From Candidatus Aenigmatarchaeota archaeon (GTDB lineage: Archaea > Aenigmatarchaeota > Aenigmatarchaeia > QMZP01 > QMZT01): a stretch of DNA of 64,000 nucleotides. Under the pieces are notes generated by a model. The model was not told where the DNA came from, made no database searches, and saw only the letters and a program-made list of their open reading frames with translations. Location: contig WVZE01000001.1 of the NCBI GenBank assembly GCA_011772645.1, positions 17,888-81,887 of the forward strand. Reading direction: 5' to 3'. Shown piece by piece: positions 1-50,998 of this stretch (positions are counted from its first letter, which is position 1; each line of letters starts with the position of its first letter). The translations under genes and the position numbers were made by a program.

Positions 1-2
1 CG

Positions 3-1524: not shown

Positions 1525-1541
1525 GCAACCACCTCGCTAAA

Positions 1542-1832: not shown

Positions 1833-1836
1833 TTTT

Positions 1837-3030: not shown

Positions 3031-3051
3031 GTTCTCACGTAGAAATTATGT

Positions 3052-3807: not shown

Positions 3808-3871
3808 AAGTGTTTATAATGGGTTTATTTTATAAAAATTGTTATTTCCAAAGTAAAATTTTCGAGTCTAT

Positions 3872-4231: not shown

Positions 4232-4261
4232 ATCAATTAAATACTGACTTAATTTTAAAAA

Positions 4262-5092: not shown

Positions 5093-5109
5093 ACCAACCG
5101 GATTAAAAA

Positions 5110-5392: not shown

Positions 5393-5452
5393 TTCTCTTG
5401 TAAATGCGTATTTAAAAGTTTATTTTTATGAAACCGAAACGAATAATTTAAT

Positions 5453-6331
5453 ATGTTATCATTCTACAAGAAACTGGCGCTGACCTTTTTTGGAGGTGTT
5501 GTTGACAGGTATATAGACTCCTTCAGGCCGCTTGAACCGCACATAAAAAATGCAAACATGAAGATTCTGTTGAAAACGTGGGTGTCTCTCATAATCTTCA
5601 CGAGTATCATGCTGTTCCTCATAACGTTCATTTTAACCTATGTCGTTCTCACCTTTTTCATACAGGTTGAGTTCTACATCTACATTTTCACAACAATATT
5701 CCTGCCCGTTTTTGTTGCGTCTGTCGCTTTCATAATTTTCTATCTTTACCCTGTACAGAGAGAAAACTCGAGAAAGAACAGCATAGAGAACAACCTTCCA
5801 TTCGCCACAACCCACATGGCTGCCATCGCCTCTTCAGGCATCCCGACCGAGTTTGTGTTTGAACTGCTGATGGGTTTTAAAGAGTACGGGGAAATAGCAG
5901 AGGAATCGAGACTTATAATGAGGAACATAAAAACTTTTGGAATGAGCAGCGTGGATGCGATAAAGAACGTCGGCGACAGAACACCTTCCCAGGAATTCAG
6001 GGAACTGCTGCTGGGAATCGTCTCGACAATAGAAACCGGGGGGAACCTCATACAATACCTGAGGGAGATGTCCGACAAGGCGTTGTTCGATTACAGGATC
6101 AAGAGGGAAAAGTACCTGAAGACTCTTTCCACTTATGCGGATATCTATACCGCACTTCTTGTCGCAGCTCCCTTGATGATGCTTGCATTGTTGGCAACCA
6201 TGAGCATAATAGGAGGTCAGGTCCTGGGTCTGGGCATACAGGATGTCATGCTGCTCATAACGTGGTTGGTATTGCCAGTACTGAATATCTCTTACCTTGC
6301 TTTCATACACGTAACATATCCGGGGATGTGA
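5453..6331 (+). CDS. Type II secretion system F-domain membrane platform protein, first of two (FlaJ/TadB/EpdJ-like)
   Basis: 292 aa and polytopic. The cytoplasmic region 'NLPFATTHMAAIASSGIP...' followed by C-terminal TM helices is typical of a T2SSF domain. Confidence 0.75.
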   Translation: MLSFYKKLALTFFGGVVDRYIDSFRPLEPHIKNANMKILLKTWVSLIIFTSIMLFLITFILTYVVLTFFIQVEFYIYIFTTIFLPVFVASVAFIIFYLYPVQRENSRKNSIENNLPFATTHMAAIASSGIPTEFVFELLMGFKEYGEIAEESRLIMRNIKTFGMSSVDAIKNVGDRTPSQEFRELLLGIVSTIETGGNLIQYLREMSDKALFDYRIKREKYLKTLSTYADIYTALLVAAPLMMLALLATMSIIGGQVLGLGIQDVMLLITWLVLPVLNISYLAFIHVTYPGM

Positions 6332-6338: not shown

Positions 6339-7184
6339 ATGAGGGAATATAGAATATTGATATTTGAAGCGATGTTCGTTGCGATAGGAGTTAGTATCCT
6401 TGTCGCGAACTTCATGATAATTTCAGAGCTTTTCCCCTTCATAAGCCCTCTTATCAACATGCTTGGAGCGCTGATAGCGATTATCCCTCCCTTCCTTCTC
6501 TTCTATTCAAGATACAGGATAGGTAAGGAGATAGAGGGGCAGTTCATAATGTTCATCACCGATCTAACGGAGGCCATAGATTCCGGGATGACCCTGCCCA
6601 TCGCCCTGAAACATTCCGCAAAGAGGAGTTACGGTGTGTTGACACCATACGTAAAGGAGATAAACAGCAAGGTCAACTGGGGCGTCCCTTTCGAACAGGC
6701 GCTCTCCATGTTTGCCAAGAAGGTCAAATCCGTTCCCATCAACAGATCGGTAGGAACGATCATCGAAACCTACAAGGTTGGGGGGAAGATTTCGGACACG
6801 TTGAAGGCGATAGGTCAGTCACTCATAGAGATAAACAAGATAAAACAGGAGAGATCCGCCTCCGTACAGTCGCAAATCGTTACCTCCTATCTCATATTCT
6901 TTGTCTTCATATTCATTCTCGTCATATTACAGGCTTTTCTGATACCCGCCCTGGGGTCTGCAACTGCGGCTGGTCTGGATGATGCTCCGGAGGAACTGCC
7001 CGAAGAACTCTATTCCCAGACTTTTGTGAACTTCATAATTGTTCAGGGGTTCTTTGCAGGACTCGCAACGGGTAAGATGGCGGAAGGTTCGCTGGTCGCC
7101 GGGTTCAAGCATTCGCTGGTTCTTGTGGTGATAGGCTATACTATATTCTCCCTCCTTGGACAGTTCCAGATAAGACTATTTTAA
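6339..7184 (+). CDS. Type II secretion system F-domain membrane platform protein, second of two (FlaJ/TadC/EpdK-like)
   Basis: 281 aa. 'QFIMFITDLTEAIDSGMTLPIALKHSA...VNWGVPFEQAL' is a T2SSF-domain signature. It starts 7 nt after the stop of the previous gene. Confidence 0.75.
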   Translation: MREYRILIFEAMFVAIGVSILVANFMIISELFPFISPLINMLGALIAIIPPFLLFYSRYRIGKEIEGQFIMFITDLTEAIDSGMTLPIALKHSAKRSYGVLTPYVKEINSKVNWGVPFEQALSMFAKKVKSVPINRSVGTIIETYKVGGKISDTLKAIGQSLIEINKIKQERSASVQSQIVTSYLIFFVFIFILVILQAFLIPALGSATAAGLDDAPEELPEELYSQTFVNFIIVQGFFAGLATGKMAEGSLVAGFKHSLVLVVIGYTIFSLLGQFQIRLF

Positions 7185-7435: not shown

Positions 7436-8521
7436 ATGAAACTGGAGGACGTCCTTGAAGATGCGTTTTTTGTGAAGCCGGATGATTCTCTTTCCCACGT
7501 GGTGTCAATGATGGCGAAGGAGAAGAGGTATGAGGCGTTCGTATCCGAAGGGGGTTTCAAAGGAATAATCACACTTGATGACATTATAAAGAGGAGGTTA
7601 ACAAGCCCGCAAAACGTTAAGGTATCGAATTTCATGAAACCGATAAACCCCTTTGAAGTGGACTCTCCTGTTGAGGATGTAATAAACTATATGCTTGTGA
7701 GCGAACATAGGTCGCTTCCGATCAAGAAGGGAGGGAGGATATTCGCGGTCACGAAACCCAAACTTCTGAATTTTATCAAGGACGAAGTTTTTGAGGGAAA
7801 GAAGGCGAAAGATGTGATGCAGTTTCCTTATTCAGCAGACACGAACGACACGCTCTCAACCGTTATTTCCGTAATGAAGGAGACGGGCCTCGACAGGATT
7901 CCGATACTTGACGAGAAAGGGGGGTTTGTTGGTCTGGTGGACAGCGTCAGCCTTGCGAATGTATTAACTGATAAAGGAAGGTCCAAGAGAGGTGAAAGGT
8001 TCGGTGATAAGGAGAGGTTGGAGGAAGTGGGGATAGAAAGATTCTTACGGAAAGAGATATTAAAGGTGAACCCGGAAACCGAGCTCAAGCGAATAGTCAG
8101 GGACATCTCGAAAGAGGGGGTTTGCGCGGTAATCGTGGAGGGAGGCGAGAAATTCCTGGGCATGATCACTGTCAGGGACCTTTTCAAATTGATAGGGAAG
8201 TCCCTGGAGACCGTCTACATAAGGATTAGCGGTCTGGACATGGAGGACGATTTCATAAAATCCAAGATAGATGAGATGGTCGACAACACCATCACCAAAC
8301 TCCTGAAATCCCTTGAGGTGAACTACGTGGCGATACATGTTGAAACGCATAAAAGCGGAGGTAAAAGAAAGAAATACTCTGCTCAGGGGAGGTTCGTTAC
8401 CGATAAGGGGAACTTCCACGCGAGCGATCACGAGTGGGACCCAACGAAAGCGATGAAGCTGTTTCTTTCGAAGATAGAGAGGGAAGTTCACAAAAAGGTG
8501 GAGATGGAGAGGGGATATTAG
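7436..8521 (+). CDS. Four-CBS-domain protein with a C-terminal HPF/RaiA (S30AE)-like domain
   Basis: Four CBS repeats are visible (for example 'GIITLDDIIKR', 'GLVDSVSLANVL', 'GMITVRDLFKLI'). The last ~110 aa, 'VYIRISGLDMEDDFIKSKIDEMV...VNYVAIHVETHKSGGKRKKYSAQGRFVTDKGNFHASDHEWDPTKAMKLFLSKIEREVHKKVE', follow the beta-alpha-beta-beta-beta-alpha pattern of ribosome hibernation factors. It starts 4 nt after the S17e stop. Confidence 0.6.
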   Translation: MKLEDVLEDAFFVKPDDSLSHVVSMMAKEKRYEAFVSEGGFKGIITLDDIIKRRLTSPQNVKVSNFMKPINPFEVDSPVEDVINYMLVSEHRSLPIKKGGRIFAVTKPKLLNFIKDEVFEGKKAKDVMQFPYSADTNDTLSTVISVMKETGLDRIPILDEKGGFVGLVDSVSLANVLTDKGRSKRGERFGDKERLEEVGIERFLRKEILKVNPETELKRIVRDISKEGVCAVIVEGGEKFLGMITVRDLFKLIGKSLETVYIRISGLDMEDDFIKSKIDEMVDNTITKLLKSLEVNYVAIHVETHKSGGKRKKYSAQGRFVTDKGNFHASDHEWDPTKAMKLFLSKIEREVHKKVEMERGY

Positions 8522-11763: not shown

Positions 11764-12366
11764 ATGAGCGGAGACGAACCTGACTGGACAAGGTTCTGGG
11801 AGGGGAAGAGAGCCTTCAGATCTTTCCTGTTTTACAGGATTTATGAGAGGTTCCGGGCGAGAAGTTATTTCAGTTTGCTGAAAAACATGAATCTGAAAGA
11901 CAAACGTATTCTTGAACTAGGCGGAGGCTCCGGTTATATCTGCAAACTCATTTGCGAAAAATTCGATTGCAAAGGGACGGTGGTAGACAACAACGAAAAG
12001 GCGTACGAAATATTCAAAAGGGTGATCGGGAACGAACGGGTGAATTACATTCTGGAGGATATGTTTAAACACGAAAAGAGGGGATACGATCTGGTCTTCT
12101 CTGACGGGCTGATAGAGCATTTCCATTTGGGGAAAAGAGAAGATATAATTTCACTGCACAGGAAGTTCGCCAAGAAAGGGGGATTCGTGATGTTCTTTGT
12201 TCCGAAAAAATCCTGGCTGGTTGAACGCTTCATGTCCATGGAGGAAGGATATGAGGAAAAAATGGATTCGAAGCAGCTGATAGAGGAGACGTCAATACCC
12301 GGTCTGAAACTGGTATCGACCAATAAGGATTTCCATATGATCGGCGTACTCTACAAGGCCGAGTGA
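11764..12366 (+). CDS. Class I SAM-dependent methyltransferase
   Basis: It has motif I 'ILELGGGSGYI' and an acidic residue after beta-2 ('VVDNN'). Confidence 0.7.
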   Translation: MSGDEPDWTRFWEGKRAFRSFLFYRIYERFRARSYFSLLKNMNLKDKRILELGGGSGYICKLICEKFDCKGTVVDNNEKAYEIFKRVIGNERVNYILEDMFKHEKRGYDLVFSDGLIEHFHLGKREDIISLHRKFAKKGGFVMFFVPKKSWLVERFMSMEEGYEEKMDSKQLIEETSIPGLKLVSTNKDFHMIGVLYKAE

Positions 12367-16642: not shown

Positions 16643-18112
16643 TTATAAATTGAAGAGGTTTTTAAAGAAATTCATCACGTTTTCTATAAATGCAGAAAAC
16701 CAGTTCTCATCTCTCTTTGAGATTATCCTGCCTGTCGTTACCATCCCCGCTGTTTCGTTCTCTGGTTCAGAAACATCAGAGGTTTCGTTCTCCATTGTTT
16801 GATTTTCCGGTTCCAAAGATTCCTTGATGAATATTTCCCTTGTTATATCATGTTTTTTGTTTTCGCACCATATCCTAACCCTCAGCTTGTATTCACCTGG
16901 CTCCGTGTCTTCCGCAATTCTGTTGCTGAGGGTCACGAGGGCGGAGGAATTCCCTGGTATGCTCGCATTTCGCCTGTTTGCATCCCATGTGTTTAACCAC
17001 TCGCTGCCGTCAAATCCGAGGGAGAGTGGTTTTTTCCCTTCGTATATGTAAGAGTAGAGAGTGTAATCTCTCTGGTAATCAAGGATGTTACTCATCCTGA
17101 CGTATATTTCAATTTCCTCGTCCTTGCTGATTTCGTAGGGGAAATAAATTATTTCAAACTCCTCCTCTTCATCTTCAGAGGTGCATTTGGGGCAGGGAGC
17201 GCAGGAACAGGTTGTTTCCCCATTTTCACAGGGAGGGCATTGCTCCGGGTCAGTTTCTCCACCCTTTACAACGATCAGTTTCTCGGCGAGGTCATTCGAA
17301 TGGTCAGAATCGTTGCATGGGAATTCCCTTATCTCAGCCACTATGTAATACGCCTCGGACCCTCCGATTTCTTTGGGCGTCCACTGTCTTGATATGTTTT
17401 TGTTGCAGGTCATGTTCTGGGTTGTGGTGTAGTTTGATCTCACCATTCTTCCGAATAGGTCCTCTATCCAGTATTCTATGCTCACTTCCTTTACTTCCTG
17501 ATCACATTCTCTGTCTTCAACACTTAGATGATAGTTTTGTCTCTCGCCTGAATTGAAAATCAGATCGGACGCTATGGAAAGCGAGAGATCGCAGGTCCCG
17601 TTGGTGACGTTGGTCTGGTTTGTTTCGTTGGTTTCATTCGTGTCTTTCGGGAGACATGTGTTTGGTAGACCTGGAGTTGAAATGTTCTGAAGAATAAAAG
17701 TCGAATTGCATAGTCCGTATGATCTATTAGTTTCAGAAGAGTTGTATACTATTTTTTGTAGGAGCGATGAACCGTTGTAGAGCGAGATGTTATCCCCGCT
17801 GTTTCTGAGGCTCATTCTGTTGTTTTCGAAAACCCTAACTTCTGAATCCCATATCTCTGCAAAAGCACTCGAGTTCTTCGTGATTATAATGAATTCATCC
17901 TTCCCGATAGAACCGTTCAGGGTTATTGGATTTTCACCAGTATCCACCGTTATGTTCTCTAAGGATAAATTAACATAGCTTGTGATCTCGATCCATTCGG
18001 AACAATCCCTGCAATTGTCATCAGGATCAGGCATGAACTCGTTTATCGTGATTGCCTGGACACTGTAAGCCGTCAAGAACAGCGAGATTACGAATACCAA
18101 ATAAACCCTCAT
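16643..18112 (-). CDS. Secreted lamin-tail-domain (LTD) protein, rich in Cys and N-glycosylation sequons
   Basis: It has a signal peptide ('MRVYLVFVISLFLTAYSVQA'). The LTD-like segment is 'ITINEFMPDPD...EWIEI...LRNSGDNISLYN'. It contains many NxS/T sequons ('NETNETNQTNVTNGT'), a Cys cluster 'CPPCENGETTCSCAPCPKC' and an acidic run. Confidence 0.6.
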   Translation of the reverse strand: MRVYLVFVISLFLTAYSVQAITINEFMPDPDDNCRDCSEWIEITSYVNLSLENITVDTGENPITLNGSIGKDEFIIITKNSSAFAEIWDSEVRVFENNRMSLRNSGDNISLYNGSSLLQKIVYNSSETNRSYGLCNSTFILQNISTPGLPNTCLPKDTNETNETNQTNVTNGTCDLSLSIASDLIFNSGERQNYHLSVEDRECDQEVKEVSIEYWIEDLFGRMVRSNYTTTQNMTCNKNISRQWTPKEIGGSEAYYIVAEIREFPCNDSDHSNDLAEKLIVVKGGETDPEQCPPCENGETTCSCAPCPKCTSEDEEEEFEIIYFPYEISKDEEIEIYVRMSNILDYQRDYTLYSYIYEGKKPLSLGFDGSEWLNTWDANRRNASIPGNSSALVTLSNRIAEDTEPGEYKLRVRIWCENKKHDITREIFIKESLEPENQTMENETSDVSEPENETAGMVTTGRIISKRDENWFSAFIENVMNFFKNLFNL

Positions 18113-21551: not shown

Positions 21552-22040
21552 ATGGGCATGAAGGGTATTTCCCCGATAATAGCCGCCGTCGTGCTGATAG
21601 CTATAAGCGTTGCTGTGGGGGTGATGATATCCTCATGGGTCACCCATTGGGTCACGAGACAAACGGGTGTAACAACACAGTGCGTGGCGCTAACGAACTA
21701 CAACATAGAGTCGGCGACATATGACAGCAGCAACAACAATCTCACGATGGTTGTAACAAACCTGGGAACCATAAAGCTTTACGGCTTCAGTGCACAGATA
21801 ATGAATCTGACCAATATAGTTACCTACAACGATACGAGCCCTGATATCAAGGTCACGCCGAATCTGAGCAAGGAATATCCGCTGACCGAACAGAGGTCCG
21901 CGATAATAATAATCAACCTGAACGGGACCCAAGGAAGCTACGGAGAGATCGGGAGGACGGCAGAAGAGATAAAGGTTTTTAACAAGGCATGCCCTGCATT
22001 TTCAGCCAAGATACCTAAAAAGGATATAGTTAAGGAGTGA
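21552..22040 (+). CDS. Archaeal type IV pilin-like protein (class III signal peptide)
   Basis: The N-terminus 'MGMKGISPIIAAVVLIAISVAVGVMI' is an archaeal Pilin_N/DUF1628-type pattern. The remainder is beta-rich with NxS/T sequons. Confidence 0.7.
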   Translation: MGMKGISPIIAAVVLIAISVAVGVMISSWVTHWVTRQTGVTTQCVALTNYNIESATYDSSNNNLTMVVTNLGTIKLYGFSAQIMNLTNIVTYNDTSPDIKVTPNLSKEYPLTEQRSAIIIINLNGTQGSYGEIGRTAEEIKVFNKACPAFSAKIPKKDIVKE

Positions 22041-22044: not shown

Positions 22045-22485
22045 ATGAGAAAGGGTATATCCCCTCTGATTGCAGTGATAATGTTAATAGCATTTACAAT
22101 GATCGTTGCAGGGATTCTCGCGGGATGGGCAACCACCTTCGTTACCACACAGAGAGAGGAACTTCAGTTTTGCGCGAAGGCTCAGCTGCTCATACAGAAT
22201 GCAAACTATAACGACACGACAAAGAATCTTACCATCGCCTTATTCAACACTGGTGACGTTCCCTTGAGGGGTTTCGTGGCAAGGTTGACCTATGCAAACA
22301 ACACAGTGGCTTCTGAAAGGAGTGGTCTGGAAACTCTTGAGATAGCCTCACAGGATATAAGAACAGTCACCGTATCTGTAGATGACACCTTGGATAAGGT
22401 AGTGATACAATCGTTGCAGTGCAGGGGGGCGCAGGACCTGATAGGCAAGTACGATATAAGGGGACTCGGTTACCCAGCGTTCTAA
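22045..22485 (+). CDS. Archaeal type IV pilin-like protein (class III signal peptide)
   Basis: The N-terminus is 'MRKGISPLIAVIMLIAFTMIVAGILAG'. It starts 4 nt after the previous pilin gene. Confidence 0.7.
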   Translation: MRKGISPLIAVIMLIAFTMIVAGILAGWATTFVTTQREELQFCAKAQLLIQNANYNDTTKNLTIALFNTGDVPLRGFVARLTYANNTVASERSGLETLEIASQDIRTVTVSVDDTLDKVVIQSLQCRGAQDLIGKYDIRGLGYPAF

Positions 22486-24717: not shown

Positions 24718-26403
24718 ATGAGGCTGAGGGGAGCTCTCAGAGAGAAGATAGACAAACTGAAGGGGAAGGGGAAGGTTAAATACCCTCTTGTTAAGATTAA
24801 GGAGCCAAAACACCTCATAGTTTTCCCTTCAATCAAGAAGATGACAAATGTTGATATAAAATACCCCCTTCTAGAGCCCTTTGTTTACGCAAGAATAAAA
24901 TGGAACCCGGAAAAAAGAGGCCTGGTATACAACATAATAGAACCCATTTTATCGAAAAAGGAGGTAAAAATTCTGGAAACAATAAAAAAGGATTTGCTTG
25001 AAACGATAGATGTCGAACTTTCAGAGGTAAAGGAGAAGGGGAAGACCTTCGAATACATACAGAAAAAGCTGACAAAGATACTGGAGGACGAAAATATTGC
25101 CTTGACCTCCGAAGGCTATGTAAAGATAAGTTATTACATATACCGAAATTTCGTCGGATTCAACGAGATCGAGGGTTTGCTTCATGATCCGTATATAGAG
25201 GATATAGGTTGTCCTGGTCTGGGGATACCGGTTTTCGTTGTTCACAGGAAGTTTGGTTCTACCGAAACCAACATCGTTTACGAAGATAGTGGTTACCTAA
25301 ACAATTTTGTGATAAAGCTGGCGGAAAGGTGTGGTAGATACGTTTCATACGCAAAACCGCTCCTCGATGGTTCACTTCCGGATGGCTCTAGGGTCCAGGC
25401 AACGCTGGCAAAAGACGTGACCACCAAGGGCCCTACATTCTCCATTCGTAAGTTCAGAATAGAGCCGTTCTCGCCCATCGACATAATAAATCTGAACACC
25501 GCATCCTCCGAACTCATGGCATACCTTTGGACTGTTACGGAAGCACGGGCTTCCACTCTGATATGCGGAGGCGTCTCGAGCGGGAAAACAACGTTTTTGA
25601 ATTCAATAAGTATGTTCATCCCTCCTGAGGACAAGATAGTTTCCATAGAAGACACCCGCGAACTAAACCTTCCGCATGAGAACTGGATACCTAGCGTTTC
25701 GAGAATCGGATTTGGTATTCCTGAGGCGTCAGGGAAAAGATATGGAGAGGTAACGCTCTTTGAACTTCTTAAGGAGTCGTTCAGACAGAATCCTGATTAC
25801 GTCATAGTGGGGGAGGTGAGGGGAAAGGAGGCGTACGTGATGTTCCAAGGCATGGCTTCAGGACACTCCTCGATCGGAACAATACACGCGGGTTCTATAG
25901 AGGATGTTATAAAACGTTTGGAAACGCCTCCCATCGAACTGTCTCCCAGTCTGGTGGAAACGCTTGATATCGTAATCGTGATGGTCAATGCAAAGGAGAA
26001 GGGAAAATCAGCAAGAAGGGTTAAAAACATAGTGGAGATAGAATCTGTAGATCCGAAAACGGGGAACCCTCACACCATAAAGACATTCGACTGGATCCCT
26101 TCAACGGATTCTTTCGGATCGAACCTTGAGGAGTCGTATCTTTTGAAGAGGATCGCCTTTGATAAGGGTATGCCTTACGAAAAGATGAAGAACGAGATAA
26201 AGAACCGGGTTAAGATTCTTGAGTGGATGAGGAAGTTCGCCATAACGGATTACAGGGAGGTATGCAAACTGGTCAATCTTTATTACAAAGAGACCTCGAT
26301 CATAATGGAATGGGTAAATCGGAATCTTCCTCCGTACAAGACCAAGGCTAAGGAAGTCAAAAAAATCCTTGAATCGTCCACGGGGCTGGGGATTATCGAG
26401 TGA
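24718..26403 (+). CDS. Type IV pilus/archaellum-type secretion ATPase (FlaI/PilB-like), full length
   Basis: 561 aa. It has Walker A 'GGVSSGKTTFLNS', Walker B/Asp box 'IVSIEDTRELNL', 'NPDYVIVGEVRGKEA' and the His box 'GHSSIGTIHAG'. It starts 5 nt after the S26e stop. Confidence 0.85.
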   Translation: MRLRGALREKIDKLKGKGKVKYPLVKIKEPKHLIVFPSIKKMTNVDIKYPLLEPFVYARIKWNPEKRGLVYNIIEPILSKKEVKILETIKKDLLETIDVELSEVKEKGKTFEYIQKKLTKILEDENIALTSEGYVKISYYIYRNFVGFNEIEGLLHDPYIEDIGCPGLGIPVFVVHRKFGSTETNIVYEDSGYLNNFVIKLAERCGRYVSYAKPLLDGSLPDGSRVQATLAKDVTTKGPTFSIRKFRIEPFSPIDIINLNTASSELMAYLWTVTEARASTLICGGVSSGKTTFLNSISMFIPPEDKIVSIEDTRELNLPHENWIPSVSRIGFGIPEASGKRYGEVTLFELLKESFRQNPDYVIVGEVRGKEAYVMFQGMASGHSSIGTIHAGSIEDVIKRLETPPIELSPSLVETLDIVIVMVNAKEKGKSARRVKNIVEIESVDPKTGNPHTIKTFDWIPSTDSFGSNLEESYLLKRIAFDKGMPYEKMKNEIKNRVKILEWMRKFAITDYREVCKLVNLYYKETSIIMEWVNRNLPPYKTKAKEVKKILESSTGLGIIE

Positions 26404-43206: not shown

Positions 43207-44457
43207 ATGAAGATATTCTCTGACCTTCACATCCACTCAAGGTTCTCCAGAGCGACCAGTAAGGAACTGAACATAGAAAATCTCGTGAAATACGCAAAAA
43301 TGAAAGGTTTGAATCTTCTTGGTACGGGAGATTTCACGCATTCTCTCTGGCTGAAAGAGTTAAAGGAGGATCTCAGGGAAGACGGTTCCGGGATTCTTAA
43401 AAGCAAGGGGGGTTTTAGCTTCCTGCTCTCGGCAGAGGTTTCAAACATCTATACCCAGGACAACAGGCAAAGGAGAATCCACAACGTAATTCTCGCCAAG
43501 GATTTCGAAACGGTTGAGCAGATAAATGATTGGTTATCCAAGAAGGGGAGGCTTGATTACGACGGCAGGCCTATATTCGGTTTCACATGCACAGAACTCG
43601 TAGAGAACATCGTGGGTATATCAAAGGATTGTATGATAATACCAGCCCATATCTGGACACCCTGGTTTTCGCTGTTCGGTTCGAAATCCGGATTTGATCG
43701 CATTGAGGAGTGTTTTCAGGATCAAACCAAAAACATATTCGCCCTGGAAACCGGGCTGTCCTCTGACCCTGAGATGAACTGGAGGCTGTCCTCCCTGGAC
43801 AGGTATGCTCTGGTTTCATTTTCCGATCTTCATTCGTTCTGGCCATGGAGAATCGGAAGGGAAGCCACGGTTTTTGAGATGAAGGAACTGACATATGATA
43901 ATTTGGTAAAAAGCATAAGGACGAAAGAGGGTTTGGTGGAGACAATCGAAGTCGATCCTTCCTACGGTAAATATCATCACGACGGACACAGAGGTTGTGG
44001 GGTTTCGCTGAGTCCTGAAGAGGCAAGGAATTCGAATAACCTCTGCCCGGTTTGTAAACGCCCGCTGACGATCGGGGTTTTACACAGGGTTGAGGAACTC
44101 GCCGACAGGGATAAAGGATTCGTTCCGAAGGATTCAAAACCCTTCCGTTCGCTGATCCCGCTGTCCGAGATCATATCGATCGTCCTTGGCTCACCGGTAA
44201 ATTCGCGGAGGGTGTGGGAGGAATACAACAAGCTTGTAAACGCCTTTGGATCCGAGTTCAACGTCCTGATGGAGGCGGGCAGAGAGCAGTTGATTAACAT
44301 CTCGAATGAAAGAATGGTTGATCTGATCTTGAATGCAAGATCCAGGAACATAAGAATAAATGCGGGTTACGATGGGGTTTACGGAGAACTCGTCATGAAG
44401 GAAGACGAAACCGAGGGGTTGGAAAAACCCCAGAAAACCCTGAAAGACTTCAGTTAG
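43207..44457 (+). CDS. endoQ: Endonuclease Q (PHP-like N-terminal domain plus zinc finger; cleaves 5' of deaminated bases)
   Basis: 'DLHIHSRFSRATSK...GLNLLGTGDFTH', 'IPAHIWTPW', 'GLSSDPEM', 'SFSDLHS', 'GKYHHDGHRGC' and 'CPVCKRPLTIGVLHRVEELAD' are collinear with Pyrococcus EndoQ, as I recall that sequence. Confidence 0.75.
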   Translation: MKIFSDLHIHSRFSRATSKELNIENLVKYAKMKGLNLLGTGDFTHSLWLKELKEDLREDGSGILKSKGGFSFLLSAEVSNIYTQDNRQRRIHNVILAKDFETVEQINDWLSKKGRLDYDGRPIFGFTCTELVENIVGISKDCMIIPAHIWTPWFSLFGSKSGFDRIEECFQDQTKNIFALETGLSSDPEMNWRLSSLDRYALVSFSDLHSFWPWRIGREATVFEMKELTYDNLVKSIRTKEGLVETIEVDPSYGKYHHDGHRGCGVSLSPEEARNSNNLCPVCKRPLTIGVLHRVEELADRDKGFVPKDSKPFRSLIPLSEIISIVLGSPVNSRRVWEEYNKLVNAFGSEFNVLMEAGREQLINISNERMVDLILNARSRNIRINAGYDGVYGELVMKEDETEGLEKPQKTLKDFS

Positions 44458-45392
44458 AACCCTGTCACCGTCAGGGAGGTCGCCGCATCTGTAAAGTATT
44501 CGTATGTCGCCCTTATCTTTAAGGTTTTTTTCAGTATGTTGATTCCTGTCCATTTATCGCCTTCGGAAAACAGTGAAATCTCCCCGTCGCAAACCACAGT
44601 TCTCGACCGGCCTTCCCATAAATCAACTTCGTCGTACATCCCCACTTCGCAGTCCTTCAGGTTCATTCCGGATTCTGGGTCTGTCTCCAGAAAGACCTTG
44701 TTCCAGTTTACCGAATCATCACAGGTTGGATAGCAGGCAACTCCTCCCCCGGCGTTTTCGATGGATATGGATATCGGAAACTCTACTTTGTTTGTGTCTT
44801 CGATGTATCTGACAGGGCTCCTCATCTGTATGCTGAGTTTGACCGGCCCTGCCGTGAGGCTGGTGGTTTCACTCGGAAGCGATCTCCCCTGCGCCTGTAT
44901 CGATCTCAATTCGCTCTCTGATATTATCGTAACGGATTTTACTATGTTGCTCTCGTAATCATAATACACCCTCAGGCTGGGGTTGAACGTTATTTTCGAG
45001 TTTCTCGGTATATCCTCGGGTGCGGAACATTTCCATATGCAGGTCTTTGATTCCCCTGTTGTTCCCGCCCGGGGGTCAGGAGCGAGAAACCTTTCTATCA
45101 CTTCCGAGCATTCTGTTTTGCAGGAGATTTCAAGTCCTCTGTTTTCATAGGTGGCTCCTATGTTGGAAAGCTCGAACCTAACATTCCCTGCATCAACAGA
45201 GCCGGTGTTTCTTATCATCAGCTGAAGGTTAAAGGGCTCCCCGGAATACATTTCAGAGGGATTCGATACAAAGCTCTCTATAACTATCCCGTTTCCGGAA
45301 GTTGTTTGCTGTCCCACACAGCCTGATAACAAAACTAAACAAAAAACGAGCAAAGTTAACTGGGCCGGTTTCGTCATAATTTTATATTGCAT
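44454..45392 (-). CDS. Secreted lipobox-type surface protein, paralogue 1 of 4 (two beta-sandwich-like halves)
   Basis: The signal and lipobox are 'LLVFCLVLLSGC'. It shares family motifs with the next three genes: 'GIVIESF', 'IRNTGSVDA', 'LAPDP', 'RVYYDYES', 'ENAGGG' and the C-terminal 'ATYEYFTDAATSLTV'. Confidence 0.6.
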   Translation of the reverse strand: MQYKIMTKPAQLTLLVFCLVLLSGCVGQQTTSGNGIVIESFVSNPSEMYSGEPFNLQLMIRNTGSVDAGNVRFELSNIGATYENRGLEISCKTECSEVIERFLAPDPRAGTTGESKTCIWKCSAPEDIPRNSKITFNPSLRVYYDYESNIVKSVTIISESELRSIQAQGRSLPSETTSLTAGPVKLSIQMRSPVRYIEDTNKVEFPISISIENAGGGVACYPTCDDSVNWNKVFLETDPESGMNLKDCEVGMYDEVDLWEGRSRTVVCDGEISLFSEGDKWTGINILKKTLKIRATYEYFTDAATSLTVTGF

Positions 45393-45407
45393 ACGAGGCT
45401 TTTATCC

Positions 45408-46385
45408 TTATCCGCTCGGCAGAACCCTTATCTGAATGGTTTTATCTATGAAGTAACCATATTCCGCTGTCAGCCTTATGTTCTTCTGGGTCAGCCTTTC
45501 AGGAATCTCGTGGACCTGAATCTTGCAGGAGATAGTCTGGGACTTGCCCATTATCAGCAAGATCTCTTCCGTTTCTTCGCAGCTGCCCTCCTCGAAGTTC
45601 ATTCCTTCGGGCAACTCTATGTATAATCTGAACTGGTTCCACATGGATCCACCTTCTGTGTATTTCCTGCAGCTGTCACTGTTCTCGCAGACCGTTCCCC
45701 CTCCGATGTTATCTATCTTTATGACCATCGGGAACGTCAGGGTTTGTCCGTAGGTTCTTATCGGACTCCTGGTCTCTATGTCCAAGGATACGGGAGAGTC
45801 TGATTCGCTCGTTGTTTCCACGGGCAGGCTTTTGCCCTGGTTCTGGATCACCCTCAGCTCGTCCTTGGGAACGATCGTGACCGTTTTTATGAGGAATGAT
45901 TTGTAATCATAGAAAACGCGAGCCCGCGGTCTGTAATCGGCGTAAAGGCCGGGCGGAACATCGGGGGCGACATACCCCCACGTACATATTTTATCGCTGC
46001 CCTCTATTCCTGCGGACGGGTCCGGAGGCAGCAACACGATACCTCTCTGATCGTATTGGCATTCCCTTTCGTAGGGGAAAACCTCCTGGTTTCTGGGGTT
46101 CTTCCTTGCATCGTCCCTTCCTTTCCACAGCTGATCAAGGCCAAGGAGCTCTGCATAACCGTTCTCCGCTTTCACGCTACCCGTGTTTCTGAATTTAAGA
46201 ACGAAGGTTACCTCCTCATTCGAATACACCTCGCTTAATTCGGGGTCTGTCCTGAAGCTCTCTATAACTATTCCCGATCCGACCGGCGTCTGAGAATCGA
46301 ACGGCACGCCAGGCATCACGCACCCCGAAGCTAGGATTAAAGAAAAGACCATAAAGCCCGAGCAGATAATTTTTTGGCTACTCAT
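45408..46385 (-). CDS. Secreted lipobox-type surface protein, paralogue 2 of 4
   Basis: The signal and lipobox are 'FSLILASGCVMPG'. Family motifs are 'GIVIESF', 'FRNTGSVKA', 'LPPDP', 'RVFYDYKS', 'DNIGGG' and 'AEYGYFIDKTIQIRV'. Confidence 0.6.
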   Translation of the reverse strand: MSSQKIICSGFMVFSLILASGCVMPGVPFDSQTPVGSGIVIESFRTDPELSEVYSNEEVTFVLKFRNTGSVKAENGYAELLGLDQLWKGRDDARKNPRNQEVFPYERECQYDQRGIVLLPPDPSAGIEGSDKICTWGYVAPDVPPGLYADYRPRARVFYDYKSFLIKTVTIVPKDELRVIQNQGKSLPVETTSESDSPVSLDIETRSPIRTYGQTLTFPMVIKIDNIGGGTVCENSDSCRKYTEGGSMWNQFRLYIELPEGMNFEEGSCEETEEILLIMGKSQTISCKIQVHEIPERLTQKNIRLTAEYGYFIDKTIQIRVLPSG

Positions 46386-46419
46386 AATTATATAATTGTC
46401 GAAAAATAAATAAAAAGAG

Positions 46420-46427
46420 GTTTAAAC
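46420..46427. promoter_or_regulatory. GTTTAAAC TATA/BRE-like element upstream of paralogue 2
   Basis: It lies 35-42 nt upstream of the start at 46385 and overlaps the stop codon of paralogue 3. Confidence 0.3.
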
Positions 46428-47402
46428 GAACTCCTCGAATCCTTTGACTGTTATCTGAGTTGCTGCATCCACGTAGTATATGTAACCCAGCTTTATCTCG
46501 AAGTTTTTCTTGACCTTGTTCGTGGGTGGCTGCGTCACTTGGAATTCGCATGTTACGTCCGTGTACTTTCCGTTCCAAACCCTAACGTATCTTCCGAATG
46601 CCGGAGTTGACAGGAATGGCGGCAGGTTTTCATAGATGCCTGTCCCGAATTGGATCTGTCTTGGACAGTCACCGACCGGTATAACACCATCAGGCCATAC
46701 AACCTCGATAGCGACCGGGTAATCCCTTCCGAATATCTGTCCTCCTCCCGTGTTGTCTATCCTTATCTGGAGCTGGAATTTGGATTCCCTCCATTCCCTT
46801 GCCTTCACGAACTGTCCTGTATCAACCGTAACACTCAGCGGGCCGGATGTTAGTACGGTGGCTTCTGTGTCCAGGGTTCCTCCTCCCTGTACCACTCTTC
46901 TGAGTTCCTCGGCCGTCACAAACCACACTGGTTTGGTCGCTCGCGTCTCATAGTAATAGTAAATCCTTGCAATTGGTTCGTATGTCATTCTCTGGTTTCT
47001 GGAAAGTGTTGGTGTTATCACGTCCCAGTCTGCCCTTCCCCTTCCGCCTTCTGTCTGCATTTCCGGATCAGGAGCAAGCAGCAAACCAAGGTCCCTGTAA
47101 ACATCTCCGTACAAATTCCATTCGGTCGTGTCTATTCCTGTAAGCTCCGCGACTGTCGGAGCGTTGTTGTAGTCTCCCCTGTTGACAACTTCCAGATGGA
47201 GACTTACTGGTTCGTCCGATTCGATGGGCGTTGTCTGGCCTAATGTTGGTTGGAAGATTTCAACAAAAATTCCTTGTCCTCCTCCTGTTGCTGGTCCAAC
47301 ACCAGGCATGGTACAACCAGAGGTTACGGTAACTGCAGCAATGAATAACAGCAAAAAGAACTTCACGTTCCTTCCGAATGCTGTTCCCATCATCTTTATC
47401 AT
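46422..47402 (-). CDS. Secreted lipobox-type surface protein, paralogue 3 of 4
   Basis: The signal and lipobox are 'IAAVTVTSGCTMPG'. Family motifs are 'GIFVEIF', 'VVNRGD', 'LAPDP', 'RIYYYYET', 'DNTGGG' and 'LGYIYYVDAATQITV'. Confidence 0.6.
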   Translation of the reverse strand: MIKMMGTAFGRNVKFFLLLFIAAVTVTSGCTMPGVGPATGGGQGIFVEIFQPTLGQTTPIESDEPVSLHLEVVNRGDYNNAPTVAELTGIDTTEWNLYGDVYRDLGLLLAPDPEMQTEGGRGRADWDVITPTLSRNQRMTYEPIARIYYYYETRATKPVWFVTAEELRRVVQGGGTLDTEATVLTSGPLSVTVDTGQFVKAREWRESKFQLQIRIDNTGGGQIFGRDYPVAIEVVWPDGVIPVGDCPRQIQFGTGIYENLPPFLSTPAFGRYVRVWNGKYTDVTCEFQVTQPPTNKVKKNFEIKLGYIYYVDAATQITVKGFEEFV

Positions 47403-47450
47403 TTTAATATTTAACCTGTTACGCTTATAAATTTAATTTGTGTTCAGAAA

Positions 47451-48434
47451 TCAATCCAGCTCGATCTCCGGCTCTATCGTTAATCTGATCTTCTTGGTGA
47501 ATTTGTAGGAATACTTGATTTTCGAGGTGAGCTGGTAGGTTTTCTCCTGGGTTATCCACCCAGGATTTCTTGGTTCTATTTCGCACGAGAATTTCGGCGA
47601 GGTTTTTCCGATAAGTTTCAGTCCTTCTTCATCTATTTTTTCCTTGCATTTTTCACATCCTGTTACCTCCTCTTCGCCTGTTGCCTCACTTTTGGCACAA
47701 CCTATTTCTATATCGTCCTTCACTATCGTATTTCCTTCAAGTTCTCCTCTTCCCCTGTTCTCGACCCAGAAGGTCATCATGCCCTTCCCAGTTGATTTTA
47801 CATCCGCATCCGGTCTTATGTCCACCATTATCGGCTGGTCAGGAGCCTCTATGTACGATTTTACAGGACCTTCGCCCACGACTATGGTTCCCTTCTCGCT
47901 GAACGTCTTGCCCTGGGAAATCAGGTTCTCGAGCTCCTGCTGGTTCACGAAACTCACGGAAGATGTGGTGTGTGTTGTGTATGTATAACTAACAAGAACC
48001 CCGACATCGCAGGGTGTTTTTATCCTCATTGAGTTCGCCTTCATCTTCCAGTCGACTATAGCGGTCGATTGCGGATACATCTTATCGATCGTGCATTTTT
48101 TGTCCTGGAAGCTCCCCCCGGTGCATATGCTTCCCGTTGTTTCGAATATCCCGCAGTCGTCATACAGCTCTATCTCCACGGTTTCCTGTGGGTCGCTCTC
48201 GGGCTTCTGGAGGTTCTGGACGTACGCGCGAAGCGTTAGGGTCTGCCCGGACCTTATCGTGTGGGACGGGATGGCCTGCAGACTCTGTATGAAAACAACG
48301 TCGTGTCTGAACTCCTCCACGTTTGGTCCGAAGAGGTCGGAAATTATTGGTATCCTGAAATCCGTTCCGGGTATTACGCATCCAGAAATCATCAGCAGTG
48401 GTACCAGGAGGGTTATCAGCAAAGGTTTCCTCAT
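47451..48434 (-). CDS. Secreted lipobox-type surface protein, paralogue 4 of 4 (most divergent)
   Basis: The signal and lipobox are 'LVPLLMISGCVIPG'. It has the same length and two-half layout, with 'VSYTYTT', 'QQELENLISQGKTF' and 'VENRGRG'. It is Cys-rich. Confidence 0.55.
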   Translation of the reverse strand: MRKPLLITLLVPLLMISGCVIPGTDFRIPIISDLFGPNVEEFRHDVVFIQSLQAIPSHTIRSGQTLTLRAYVQNLQKPESDPQETVEIELYDDCGIFETTGSICTGGSFQDKKCTIDKMYPQSTAIVDWKMKANSMRIKTPCDVGVLVSYTYTTHTTSSVSFVNQQELENLISQGKTFSEKGTIVVGEGPVKSYIEAPDQPIMVDIRPDADVKSTGKGMMTFWVENRGRGELEGNTIVKDDIEIGCAKSEATGEEEVTGCEKCKEKIDEEGLKLIGKTSPKFSCEIEPRNPGWITQEKTYQLTSKIKYSYKFTKKIRLTIEPEIELD

Positions 48435-48507
48435 AATAATATTTTGGCAGTTTCAAATAAAAAGGTATAAAAGGTAACTATTTTATTGTTCAAAAGAAAA
48501 ACTTATT

Positions 48508-48987
48508 ATGAAGGGCCAGTTTGTTTTTGAGTTTCTTATAGCAGGGGTGATATTTTTCGCGATAGTTCTTTACGCGATGAACTATTTGAACGTGAATGTC
48601 TCTGATTTTAAGGGGAGGTTTTACGTGGATAAGCTGCAGAGCAAAGCGCTGCAGATATCGGAGATACTCGGGAATGAAAAGTCGTCTGTCGGCCTTGTTG
48701 AGGGTCCTTATCTGTTCAACGCCAGTAAAATAGCGGACTTCAACACAACATATTGCATAGACCGGGCGGGGTATATGAAAATGAGGGAGGATTTCGAGCT
48801 CACAGAAAAAACAGAATATGGTGAGAGGATGCATAACGCGAACATAACCCTGGTCACGGAATCCGGAATTCCTATCTTACAGTGTGGCTACACCATCCCC
48901 ATGTGGACAGAGAAAGCGGAGATAGAAAGGTTTGGTATCTTGAACGAAAACAACGAGCTGGTAACCCTGAGGGTAATTGTCTGGTAA
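48508..48987 (+). CDS. Pilin-like protein with a class III signal peptide (G|QFVFE, Glu at +5)
   Basis: The N-terminus is 'MKGQFVFEFLIAGVIFFAIVLYAM'. It is transcribed divergently from the four-paralogue cluster across a 73-bp spacer. Confidence 0.55.
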   Translation: MKGQFVFEFLIAGVIFFAIVLYAMNYLNVNVSDFKGRFYVDKLQSKALQISEILGNEKSSVGLVEGPYLFNASKIADFNTTYCIDRAGYMKMREDFELTEKTEYGERMHNANITLVTESGIPILQCGYTIPMWTEKAEIERFGILNENNELVTLRVIVW

Positions 48988-49025: not shown

Positions 49026-49667
49026 ATGAAGATAATAATCGTCGGTGGTGGATCAATCGGCGAGGCCCTGGCCGGGCTGCTGATAAAGGAAAAGCACGAT
49101 GTCGTCGTTATAGAGAAGGACGAAAAGCTCGCCGAACAGCTTGCCGAGAAACTAGATGCGCTCGTTCTGCATGGCGATGGGACGGACAAGAACATACTGA
49201 AGGACGCAAACATAAACAATGTTGATGCCGTCGTGAGCATCACGGACGATGACAAAACGAATCTTATGGTCTGCGAGGTAGCCAAGGGTGTCAACGTTCC
49301 CAACATAATAGCGAGGATAAACCAATCGGACAACGAAGGAATATTCACAAAGATAGGAATCACGAATCTTATCAACACGACAAACACAGCGATCCTCGCC
49401 TTCAAAAAGGCGCTGGAAAAACCGGGTAAACAGCTGATAAATCTAATAGCAGGGGGGAAAGGCGAAGTCTTCGAGGTGAGCGTGGGGAAGGATTCGAAAT
49501 TCGCAAACAAGACACTTGCGAATATCGCGAAAGGCTTCACCATCGCTTTTATTTACAGGAGTGATAAGCTCCTGCTCCCGAAACCGGAAACAAAGATCAA
49601 GGAGGGAGACATACTAACGATCTGTTCTCCTCTCGAAGAGGTTAAAAAGATAGAGAAAATGATTTAG
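49026..49667 (+). CDS. trkA: TrkA-type K+ transport NAD-binding protein (TrkA-N plus TrkA-C)
   Basis: 'MKIIIVGGGSIGEALAGLL...DVVVIEKD' is a Rossmann fold and the TrkA-C segment is 'EGDILTICSP'. The track ORF start at 48882 is rejected because it overlaps the upstream gene. Confidence 0.8.
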   Translation: MKIIIVGGGSIGEALAGLLIKEKHDVVVIEKDEKLAEQLAEKLDALVLHGDGTDKNILKDANINNVDAVVSITDDDKTNLMVCEVAKGVNVPNIIARINQSDNEGIFTKIGITNLINTTNTAILAFKKALEKPGKQLINLIAGGKGEVFEVSVGKDSKFANKTLANIAKGFTIAFIYRSDKLLLPKPETKIKEGDILTICSPLEEVKKIEKMI

Positions 49668-50998
49668 ACCTTCCTGGTTCCTTTTTTCTTAAAGAATTCC
49701 TTCAGAATTTCCCTAAGATCTGGTCTACCCTTCTCCTTCAGGTGATAGGTTATGTAAACAGAGGGCTTGTTTATCCTGATCAGCTCGGCGAGGTCCATGG
49801 GCGTTGCGATTATCACGAGATCGCAGGGGGTTCTGTTTATCGTTCTTTCTAGCTCTTTGATCTGCGTCTTTCCGTAACCCAGAGCGGGCAAAACCTCCTT
49901 GATCTGGGCGTATTTTTCGTACGCTCTCTTTATCGAACCTACTGCGTGTTCCTTTGGTCTAACGATGCGCTTCGCATGGAATTTTTTGGCGGCAACCCAG
50001 CCCGCCCCGTAGGACATCTCTCCGTGTGTCAGGGTGGGACCGTCCTCAACTATCAGAACCTTTCTGTTCCTTATCTTCTCCGGCTCGTCCGTTGTAACCT
50101 CTGAATTCGCGTGTATGATTTTTGCGGACGGGTTGGTTTTTCTGATAACTTTCCATACCCTTCTGATGTCCTCATTTTTTGCGGTGTTCTCCTTGTTTAT
50201 CACGACAACATCCGCCATCCGGAGGTTCGTTTCGCCAGGATAATATCTTATCCCGTGCCCCGGCCTGTGTGGGTCAGCGACTACTATGTGTAAATATGGT
50301 TTGAAGAAAGGGAAATCGTTGTTCCCTCCATCCCATAAGATTATGTCCGCTTCCTTTTCCGCCTCTTTCAGAATTTCCCCATAATCCACACCCGCATAAA
50401 CAACAAACCCGTTCTTGATGTGCTGTTCGTATTCTTCTCGTTCCTCGATCGTGCATTCGTGCCTGTATAAATCCCCGTAGTCAGCAAAACGCTGAGCGAT
50501 TTGCTTTCGCAAATCCCCGTAGGGCATTGGGTGACGGATCACGACGACTTTATAGCCCATTTCCTTTAGGATGAGGGAGATCCTTCGGGAGGTCTGTGAT
50601 TTGCCGCATCCTGTCCGGACAGCACAGACAGAAACGACCGGTTTTCTGGATTTGATCATTGTCGTTTCGCTGCCCATCAGGACAAAATCCGCTCCGTTCG
50701 CGTTCACAAGGCTTGCCTTATGCATAACGTTTTCGTATGATAAATCCGAATAGGCAAGAACAACCATATCTGCTTTATGTTTTTTTATAATTACAGGCAG
50801 ATCCTTTTCTTCATATATTGGTACGCCCTTGGGGTAGAGTTTCCCGGAGAGTTCTTTAGGATAGCATCTTCCGGAAATGTTCGGGATCTGCTCTGCCGTG
50901 AAGCAAACCACCTCATAATTTTTGTTGTTTCGAAAAAACACGTTGAAATTATGGAAATCCCTTCCGGCAGCTCCCATTATTATGACCTTTCGTTTCAT
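49664..50998 (-). CDS. COG2403-type P-loop protein (predicted GTPase / cyclic 2,3-diphosphoglycerate synthetase-like family)
   Basis: 'IIMGAAGRDFHNFN' and 'VCAVRTGCGKSQTS' (P-loop) are present in a 444-aa protein. The family assignment is from memory of the motif pattern and the function is uncertain. Confidence 0.5.
   Translation of the reverse strand: MKRKVIIMGAAGRDFHNFNVFFRNNKNYEVVCFTAEQIPNISGRCYPKELSGKLYPKGVPIYEEKDLPVIIKKHKADMVVLAYSDLSYENVMHKASLVNANGADFVLMGSETTMIKSRKPVVSVCAVRTGCGKSQTSRRISLILKEMGYKVVVIRHPMPYGDLRKQIAQRFADYGDLYRHECTIEEREEYEQHIKNGFVVYAGVDYGEILKEAEKEADIILWDGGNNDFPFFKPYLHIVVADPHRPGHGIRYYPGETNLRMADVVVINKENTAKNEDIRRVWKVIRKTNPSAKIIHANSEVTTDEPEKIRNRKVLIVEDGPTLTHGEMSYGAGWVAAKKFHAKRIVRPKEHAVGSIKRAYEKYAQIKEVLPALGYGKTQIKELERTINRTPCDLVIIATPMDLAELIRINKPSVYITYHLKEKGRPDLREILKEFFKKKGTRKV

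Follow-up and report, generated by a model that had tools for sequence, protein, structure and literature searches.

Paralogous lipoprotein genes paired with the gene of a pilin-like protein in Aenigmatarchaeota: a candidate envelope complex

What could be the role of four tandem genes for paralogous lipoproteins that are transcribed divergently from the gene of a pilin-like protein? This arrangement occurs at positions 44454–48987 of a stretch of 64,000 nt (hereafter, the window) from a Candidatus Aenigmatarchaeota archaeon (assembly GCA_011772645.1, contig WVZE01000001.1, positions 17,888–81,887); the lipoproteins are designated A to D and the pilin-like protein, E. The original prediction, made without database searches, considered a multi-subunit surface layer, a set of adhesins or a pilus-associated complex, possibly lipid-anchored. 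On the basis of the fixed order of the lipoprotein genes, their pairing with E, the presence of E orthologues in pilus operons and an opposite bias in N-glycosylation sequons, we give a probability of about 0.5 to the reading that the five genes specify an Aenigmatarchaeota-specific, extracytoplasmic, lipid-anchored hetero-oligomer of the D, C and A/B types, working with a type IV pilus-like system via E.

Organization and paralogy of the lipoprotein genes

The lipoprotein genes occupy the minus strand, starting with D (47451–48434, 327 aa) and followed by C (46422–47402, 326 aa), B (45408–46385, 325 aa) and, in fourth place, A (44454–45392, 312 aa), with spacers of 48 nt between C and D, 36 nt between B and C, and 15 nt between A and B. 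The gene for E (48508–48987, 159 aa) is on the plus strand, separated from D by an A/T-rich divergent intergenic region of 73 nt (48435–48507). The list of open reading frames (ORFs) reproduced all the sizes, strands and spacers of the original prediction. The window also matches contig JABAOC010004231.1 of assembly GCA_012975005.1, from a Candidatus Aenigmarchaeota (DPANN) metagenome. Public annotation starts A at Met6, resulting in 307 aa instead of 312 aa, and assigns 314 aa to B; we disfavour this start for B because the signal that it leaves is too short, whereas with 325 aa B has a proper n-region and h-region. The D–E spacer contains TATA-like runs on the D side (TTTTTATTT) and on the E side (ATTTTATTG), some 25–30 nt before each ATG, and an alignment of orthologous spacers shows A/T-rich boxes preceding the D start codon. 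This spacer probably carries back-to-back promoters driving near-leaderless mRNAs.

Each of the proteins A–D opens with a basic n-region, which leads into a hydrophobic h-region and then S-G-C (LLSG/C in A, LASG/C in B, VTSG/C in C and MRKPLLITLLVPLLMISG/C in D; slashes mark predicted cleavage sites). All four fit the lipobox [LVI][ASTVI][GAS]C, as quoted in PMC12462473, and have the Cys within approximately 15–35 residues of the start. An alignment of 146 family members bore out the predicted SGC lipobox, with the Cys at the canonical position after the n-region and h-region: G-C is present in 146/146, S at −2 in 142/146 and V, I, A, T or L at −3 in 134/146, the median position of the Cys is 20 and the mean hydropathy of the 12 residues that precede it is 2.96. 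The weak N-terminal database matches were to lipoprotein signal peptides only (Rz1, spanin, Wza). We thus infer from these signals that A–D are lipidated on the lipobox Cys, with removal of the signal peptide. Export through the twin-arginine (Tat) pathway was ruled out, the twin-arginine motif being absent from the n-regions. Lipoproteins are predicted to be prevalent in DPANN archaea, where the AliA enzyme (arCOG02177) is present, with gaps (PMC12462473).

The mature N-termini of B, C, D and their orthologues also showed conservation, with a C-(V/T)-(I/M)-P-G sequence starting at the lipobox Cys. In D this extends to a peptide of around 25 residues (CVIPGTDxxIPxxxxxFG), kept down to about 31% overall identity. 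Such conservation is unusual for a lipoprotein tether and suggests that the mature N-terminus of D might be a recognition or docking peptide.

The four proteins had been described as clear paralogues, which is evident from pairwise comparisons for A, B and C. Protein A shows 40% identity to B and 32% to C (BLASTP E 6e-34 for A versus C), but only 21% to D, the most divergent paralogue, with a pairwise BLASTP match that is not significant (E 1.3). Profiles were then built separately for each gene position from the mature orthologues of 12 loci, and the independent D profile matched those of A/B (Prob 98.7%, E 2.5e-16, 259 columns) and C (Prob 98.8%, E 5.9e-17); D also matched the family hidden Markov model with an E of 4e-61. 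These comparisons indicate that D is a true but distant paralogue of A, B and C, detectable only by profile comparison. Likewise, the motifs that the original prediction listed as shared (GIVIESF, RNTGS, LAPDP, RVYYDYES and others) are present in A, B and C, but D contains only degenerate versions of them.

A neighbour-joining tree of the mature proteins from the 12 loci resolved three orthogroups that match gene position: position 1 corresponds to D, always the D orthogroup, position 2 to C, and positions 3 and 4 to A/B. In this tree, the A/B split is a later duplication within the four-gene clade, and the gene order D-C-(B)-A is identical in every locus. Ancient, position-fixed and non-redundant paralogues would be expected of the subunits of a hetero-oligomer.

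An exhaustive profile search of 1.84 billion cluster representatives (clusters at 50% identity) recovered at least 428 clusters at E ≤ 1e-30, and 3540 at E ≤ 1e-3. Among the best 150 cluster representatives, nearly all matches were full-length, of roughly 280–370 aa. The source names recovered are all Aenigmarchaeota or Aenigmatarchaeota, except for some given only as "archaeon" or "uncultured archaeon", and one metagenome-assembled genome (MAG) with three family members in its locus is labelled Nanoarchaeota. The apparently split genes of locus L004 are an assembly artefact, with a run of unknown residues (X) inside gene C, as is the truncated gene of L018, whose record is described as a chromosome and has a 100-N scaffold gap in D (8380–8479). 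In a relative with higher GC content (L006), a gene for a very hydrophobic and apparently multi-pass protein of 122 aa (11884–12252, plus strand), with no Pfam match, lies between the second and third lipoprotein genes; it was seen in none of the other loci examined.

The AlphaFold2 model of A, obtained with a 39-sequence alignment, had a mean predicted local distance difference test (pLDDT) of 87.8 and a predicted TM-score (pTM) of 0.81, and consists of two all-beta domains (beta-sandwiches) with a helix, residues 159–168, between them. The two domains matched each other in hhalign (Prob 94.7%, E 5.7e-8), which substantiates the two homologous beta-rich halves noted before and implies that each lipoprotein is an internal duplication. 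The suggested likeness to CARDB (PF07705) stands at a sub-threshold level, with matches at E ≤ 0.01 in 28 of the 146 members (best E 2.4e-6), but A scores below the Pfam cut-off (17.3 versus 22.7 bits, E 0.0058) and B, C and D gave no match. The modelled domains thus appear to be CARDB-like in fold, yet not CARDB members by cut-off. Sub-threshold Pfam matches to DUF11 and NPCBM_assoc were also found. The best-conserved positions are structural (Y-x-Y strands, N-x-G-G-G turns and Cys pairs), and the mature A–D are acidic, with an isoelectric point (pI) of 4.65–4.96.

The original prediction recognized no characterized family for the four proteins, and our searches agree. No family from Pfam, NCBIfam, PHROGs or PADLOC claims any of the five proteins; the matches in Pfam and NCBIfam were all sub-threshold, in PHROGs the sole match was a weak lipoprotein signal (Rz-like spanin) on A, and PADLOC returned nothing. 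Sequence searches of the PDB with single sequences and deep profiles produced no match for the lipoproteins, and Foldseek of the A model against the PDB retrieved only generic tandem immunoglobulin (Ig)-like proteins with a TM-score of about 0.2, from integrin alpha, sialidase, Cna, FimC, PmoB and transglutaminase; at this score, the resemblance to FimC or PmoB was not taken as meaningful. We also discarded a solute-binding protein or an enzyme, with no fitting fold or motif, and a phage or defence element, given the lack of PHROG or PADLOC support and the housekeeping context of the locus.

Protein E, its pairing with the lipoproteins and its place in pilus operons

The N-terminus of E (MKG/QFVFEFLIAGVIFFAIVLYAM, that is, MKG/QFVFEF) fits the class III type, with a charged leader ending in G, approximately 20 hydrophobic residues and Glu at +5. 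The prepilin-like N-terminus of the original prediction is sustained by conservation: no variation was seen among 15 orthologues at K2, G3, Q4, E8 (the Glu at +5) or F9, nor at C83, C126 and R141 elsewhere in the protein. In a set of 52 homologues F9 never varies, and the conservation of G3, Q4 and E8 is at least 90%. Cleavage after Gly3 by a prepilin peptidase is plausible. The AlphaFold2 model of E, obtained with the 52 homologues, had a pLDDT of 93.7 and shows a single helix of 54 residues (2–55) followed by a small alpha/beta head with a conserved Cys83–Cys126 pair, an architecture that, as modelled, resembles the "lollipop" of bacterial pilins.

No PDB match was found for E by sequence. 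Its sole family lead was DUF7287 (PF23958), an archaeal and uncharacterized family of about 157 aa, with which residues 2–159 of E align end to end (positions 3–157 of 157 in the model) at a score below the cut-off (14.6 versus 27 bits, E 0.049). This model was matched at E ≤ 1 by eight of the 15 E orthologues, the best E being 1.9e-5, and the domain is annotated in several database homologues, suggesting that E is a distant relative of DUF7287 and not a member by the curated cut-off. We found no papers on DUF7287 or neighbouring DUF numbers in the literature searched, and a tblastn search against plasmids for a haloarchaeal context of a DUF7287-bearing homologue gave no match.

The pairing of E with the lipoproteins was examined from both sides. 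When GTDB species genomes were scanned with D as the seed (SGC[VT]IPGT[DN]), 12 loci were found, and these, plus loci from exact-protein look-ups, gave 15 non-window loci with DNA upstream of D; in 15/15 an E-like gene lies directly upstream of D on the opposite strand. Four further loci reached from E homologues (L019–L022) have the same divergent arrangement, for a total of 19/19 judgeable non-window loci. In the opposite direction, a metagenome scan seeded with E yielded 49 loci, and divergent members of the lipoprotein family were found 14–186 nt from E in 36 of the 42 with at least 400 nt upstream of E. When at least 3.3 kb were available upstream of E (22 loci), there were four paralogues in 10 loci, three in nine and none in three. 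The module sits among housekeeping genes and is kept in every sampled member of the lineage. Loci L012 and L020 have none of the flanking genes of the window, and L006 has partly changed flanks; the divergent pair of E and D is present in all three. Co-conservation of the paralogue cluster with the pilin-like gene, for which the original prediction asked, thus extends to loci with changed flanks. None of the three conditions that the original prediction gave as refuting it (a well-characterized family, a lack of co-conservation, a Cys away from the predicted cleavage site) was borne out.

The six loci without lipoproteins (L046, L047, L049, L050, L051 and L054) all fall in a single clade, which is nested inside the E tree. 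In L046, L047 and L050, an operon ends with the E orthologue, placed directly after T2SSE(PilB3_C)-T2SSF-T2SSF, and the other three show the same order with E last as far as the contigs reach. This position, at the end of an operon for a PilB3-type ATPase and two TadC proteins, indicates that the E family is a component of a type IV pilus-like system, and gives specific support to the option of a pilus-associated complex. In L046, L047 and L050 the operon lies at about 800–5500 and starts with genes for class III-like proteins of 204 aa and 138 aa (the latter with a weak DUF7266 match), before T2SSE, T2SSF, T2SSF and E; TrkA and H+-pyrophosphatase genes follow E. The 204-aa and 138-aa proteins start with M(R/A)KAQ...FEQ, another N-terminus of the Gln+1 type.

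The window itself contains dispersed pilus genes, separated by housekeeping genes (RtcB, archease, ribosomal proteins). A gene for a 561-aa T2SSE-family secretion ATPase (24718–26403, plus strand; Pfam T2SSE) is the best window match to the PilB3_C-bearing ATPase of L050 (41% identity over 510 aa, E 2e-127), and is a candidate to act in trans as the assembly ATPase for E. Similarly, two TadC/T2SSF-like platform genes (5453–6331 and 6339–7184, plus strand; Pfam T2SSF both) are the best window matches to the TadC pair that precedes E in L050 (33% and 30% identity), and could supply the platform in trans. Two tandem, canonical archaeal PilA-type pilin genes (21552–22040 and 22045–22485, plus strand) encode products starting with MKGISPIIA and MRKGISPLIA; the second passes Pfam Pilin_N (26.1 versus 25.2 bits), and they are a different pilin class from E. 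There is also a partial second T2SSE gene at the start of the window (1–572).

The convergent neighbour of A (43207–44457, plus strand), which its stop overlaps by 4 nt, encodes a 416-aa protein with a Pfam MJ0043_C match and an N-terminus that is PHP-like by eye; our guess is an endonuclease Q-like repair enzyme. This gene occupies the same position in 10 of 15 loci, even when the other flank is changed (L006), and a functional tie to the lipoproteins and E is not evident. On the other side, a 444-aa protein (49664–50998, minus strand) is encoded by a gene that adjoins TrkA, overlaps by 4 nt a gene for an ADP-forming acetyl-CoA synthetase-like protein and is kept at the same place in many relatives; it has no Pfam family above the cut-off, and a weak match to the CobW/HypB/UreG nucleotide-binding family (E 0.009).

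N-glycosylation sequons and alternative explanations

The two families showed opposite frequencies of N-x-S/T sequons. In 146 mature lipoproteins (42,785 residues) there were 21 sequons versus 301 expected from shuffles, a ratio of 0.07 or about a 14-fold depletion; 131 of the 146, including A–D of the window, have none, with 2.9 expected for A. The 52 proteins of the E family contain 152 versus 62 expected (ratio 2.46), with four in the E of the window and sites recurring across the family near residues 30, 71, 79 and 133. The other 45 ORFs of the window had 78 versus 76 expected (ratio 1.03). Control motifs were close to 1 in the lipoproteins (S/T-x-N, 0.90; N-S/T, 0.96; Q-x-S/T, 1.07; D-x-S/T, 1.04) and reached 0.95–1.33 in the E family. 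Selection on sequons is to be expected only in proteins that the oligosaccharyltransferase can reach. The asymmetry is therefore independent evidence that both families are extracytoplasmic, and the conserved Cys pairs of the lipoproteins and E fit an external location. The lipoproteins would stay free of glycans and E would be decorated with them. This asymmetry is new to this analysis.

Glycosylation genes were seen near E in two loci (L019/L020; 8611–12047, in a MAG labelled Nanoarchaeota), which is of interest given the sequon asymmetry. An STT3 (AglB-type) gene of 852 aa is located about 1 kb downstream of E, preceded by a gene for a 169-aa protein with a weak signal-peptidase/S24-type match (E 0.0024, below the cut-off) and, between both, by a TFIIS-type zinc ribbon; a block of sugar-modification genes is next. 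In the window, a gene at 16643–18112 (minus strand) encodes a secreted protein of 489 aa (signal MRVYLVFVISLFLTAYSVQA/ITINEF) with 24 sequons versus 7.2 expected, many cysteines and an acidic tail, whose sole match is a weak Lamin Tail Domain (E 1.3e-4, below the cut-off). It is a candidate major surface glycoprotein of this archaeon and, as such, would suit an S-layer or coat better than the four lipoproteins do.

These data bear on other ways to read the locus. The four lipoproteins could form a cell surface layer, as a lipid-anchored multi-subunit coat with E unrelated or merely co-regulated; beta-sandwich domains of the CARDB/DUF11-like kind are typical for the surface proteins of prokaryotes, and a coat would agree with several non-redundant, acidic paralogues and with a module found among housekeeping genes in every sampled member of the lineage. 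Archaeal S-layer proteins, however, are usually N-glycosylated, and the near-total absence of sequons, used as a glycosylation proxy, weakens the surface-layer option of the original prediction. The 489-aa protein is better suited to a glycosylated coat, and a surface layer leaves the strict pairing with a pilus-system protein unexplained, so that we regard it as decidedly unlikely. The lipoproteins could also be pilus-independent, ligand-binding or host-contact adhesins of an episymbiont, with sequon avoidance keeping their binding faces clear. Cultivated DPANN archaea are host-attached, as the surveyed papers also say, the best Foldseek matches include the CBM (carbohydrate-binding module) region of a sialidase, the Cna/Cnm collagen adhesins and the legs of integrin alpha, albeit with a TM-score of only about 0.2, and a few members have weak matches to NPCBM_assoc and CBM49. 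Nevertheless, neither a conserved pocket nor a known binding motif was identified, the best-conserved positions are structural, and the lipid anchor and short tether would hold the proteins at their own membrane, beneath any outer coat. Besides, the fixed architecture of three orthogroups argues for an obligate hetero-complex and not for a diversifying set of adhesins, leaving this possibility with a low probability.

A third reading is that the adjacency is synteny inherited within one phylum and devoid of functional meaning, E being a minor pilin and the lipoproteins unrelated to it. Most loci indeed have the TrkA, MJ0043_C/PHP, thermosome and 444-aa genes in common as flanks, so that phylogenetic inertia is part of the picture, and one clade has E in a pilus operon, having left the lipoproteins or never joined them. 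Yet the divergent pair survives changed flanks in L012, L020 and, partly, L006, the intergenic distance stays short (14–186 nt) and the strong, opposite selection on sequons implies that both partners are envelope proteins exposed to the same machinery. We consider pure synteny very unlikely.

Several observations also weigh against a lipoprotein hetero-oligomer working with a pilus-like system. Much of the surrounding synteny is conserved as well, which weakens any argument from neighbourhood, and all the sequences compared are metagenome-derived, coming only from MAGs. The ATPase and TadC genes of the window are 22–43 kb from the lipoprotein/E locus, no ATPase or TadC gene was found within about 8 kb in 14 of the 15 other loci, no prepilin peptidase (Peptidase_A24) appeared among the annotated regions of the window and no AliA homologue was identified in its 64 kb. 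Conversely, there is no lipoprotein gene within 5 kb of E in the pilus-operon clade, so E may be able to do without the lipoproteins, or it may serve in two roles. As for E itself, it lacks matches to Pilin_N, Class_IIIsignal and N_methyl in Pfam/NCBIfam, and its head had no Foldseek match at E ≤ 0.001 in the PDB or BFVD, solved pilins included. In addition, 21 of the 52 E homologues have the sequon at residue 30, just outside the hydrophobic segment, where a glycan, if added, would be awkward in the core of a canonical pilus filament. Finally, we infer the physical association of the lipoproteins with E, as well as any anchoring role.

Proposed mechanism and comparison with known systems

If the lipoproteins do form a hetero-oligomer that works with a pilus-like system, a plausible sequence of events would be as follows. 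D, C, B and A would be exported by Sec, an AliA-type enzyme would, as the literature suggests, lipidate the invariant Cys, and the signal peptide would be removed. Each lipoprotein would then be suspended from the outer leaflet, with its two CARDB-like beta-sandwich domains forming a rigid pair, and the D, C and A/B types would assemble into a hetero-oligomer of fixed composition, their surfaces kept free of N-glycans probably because they are used for tight protein–protein packing. E would be cut after Gly3 by a prepilin peptidase, its head N-glycosylated, and the protein taken over by the PilB3-type ATPase and the TadC platform, whose genes lie elsewhere in the window, to become a minor or priming subunit of the fibre or a membrane-retained stalk. 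The lipoprotein complex might dock on E at the base of the fibre, as an envelope collar or anchor; the membrane-proximal fibre base appears to be its most likely site. In its most specific form, that of a collar or platform of three to four glycan-free lipoproteins that anchors, gates or positions a PilB3-type fibre via a bacterial-style, long-helix E, the proposal is rather unlikely. More confidence can be placed in the general claim, that of an envelope complex with a link to a pilus-system protein.

Of the ideas already described, the closest is that of the "S-layer-like" secreted proteins, which Makarova, Koonin & Albers (2016, PMC4858521) predicted to be accessory components in archaeal loci for PilA-based pili. 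Like them, the lipoproteins of the module are secreted, all-beta, Ig/CARDB-like and linked to a pilin-like gene, conserved cysteines are common to both, and in both cases the function is a prediction. Unlike the single, large "S-layer-like" protein with a C-terminal transmembrane helix, the module has a fixed set of three to four paralogues, each of about 300 aa and with an N-terminal lipobox as its anchor, is encoded away from the ATPase and TadC genes and is nearly free of sequons. The module may thus be a variant of predicted pilus-associated surface proteins, differing in anchor, composition, location and sequon avoidance.

Class_IIIsignal/DUF361 covers archaeal pilins in which Gln occupies +1 and Glu +5, and which are substrates of EppA in Methanococcus. 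Like these class III-signal pilins, E starts with a short, basic leader whose last residue is Gly, and then has Gln at +1, Glu at +5 and approximately 20 hydrophobic residues; as in bacterial type IV pilins and pseudopilins, the model predicts a long amphipathic helix and a globular head with a disulfide, and, like pilins, an E orthologue is encoded after ATPase-TadC-TadC. However, the head of E had no significant match to any solved pilin and is not the Ig-like sandwich of archaeal pilins, and its helix is longer than is usual in them.

With respect to the lipoproteins, A–D share with those matured by AliA/AliB in Haloferax volcanii a Sec-type signal and the lipobox [L/V/I]-[A/S/T/V/I]-[G/A/S]-C (PMC12462473). 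Their lipobox is, however, far more restricted than in archaeal lipoproteins generally, with an almost invariant S-G-C, and in B, C and D residues +2 to +5 (V/T-I/M-P-G) are also conserved; lipidation is predicted. Many predicted archaeal lipoproteins are solute-binding proteins, unlike the tandem beta-sandwich of the module. In bacteria, PilP is a beta-sandwich inner-membrane lipoprotein of the PilMNOPQ alignment complex. By analogy only, the lipoproteins of the module would likewise be lipid-anchored beta-sandwiches on the outer face of the cytoplasmic membrane, tied to a type IV pilus machine; no sequence or specific structural similarity was found, and archaea have neither secretin nor outer membrane. 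The parallel with PilP is therefore one of how the module might work and not a claim of membership. The closest conceptual parallels are the "S-layer-like" pilus-locus proteins and the lipoprotein-containing alignment complexes of bacterial pili.

To our knowledge, it is not known how archaeal type IV pili are held in the envelope, nor which accessory proteins they have, and DPANN archaea are thought to be attached to their hosts through poorly defined surface structures. The module offers a concrete candidate for an envelope complex that is lineage-wide, tied by gene order to a pilus-system protein and formed by non-redundant, sequon-purged lipoproteins. If our specific proposal were true, there would be, for the first time, a candidate for a sub-complex of an archaeal adhesive pilus that is dedicated to anchoring in the envelope or to contact with the host, and the reciprocal selection on sequons, purged from the lipoproteins and enriched in E, would be a signature of buried versus exposed envelope surfaces. 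As a sequence-only signal, this asymmetry could be used to separate the archaeal envelope proteins that are glycan-exposed from those that are glycan-excluded. Even if the role of the module stays generic, its analysis defines a new family of lipoproteins, with at least 428 clusters, that is in no curated database.

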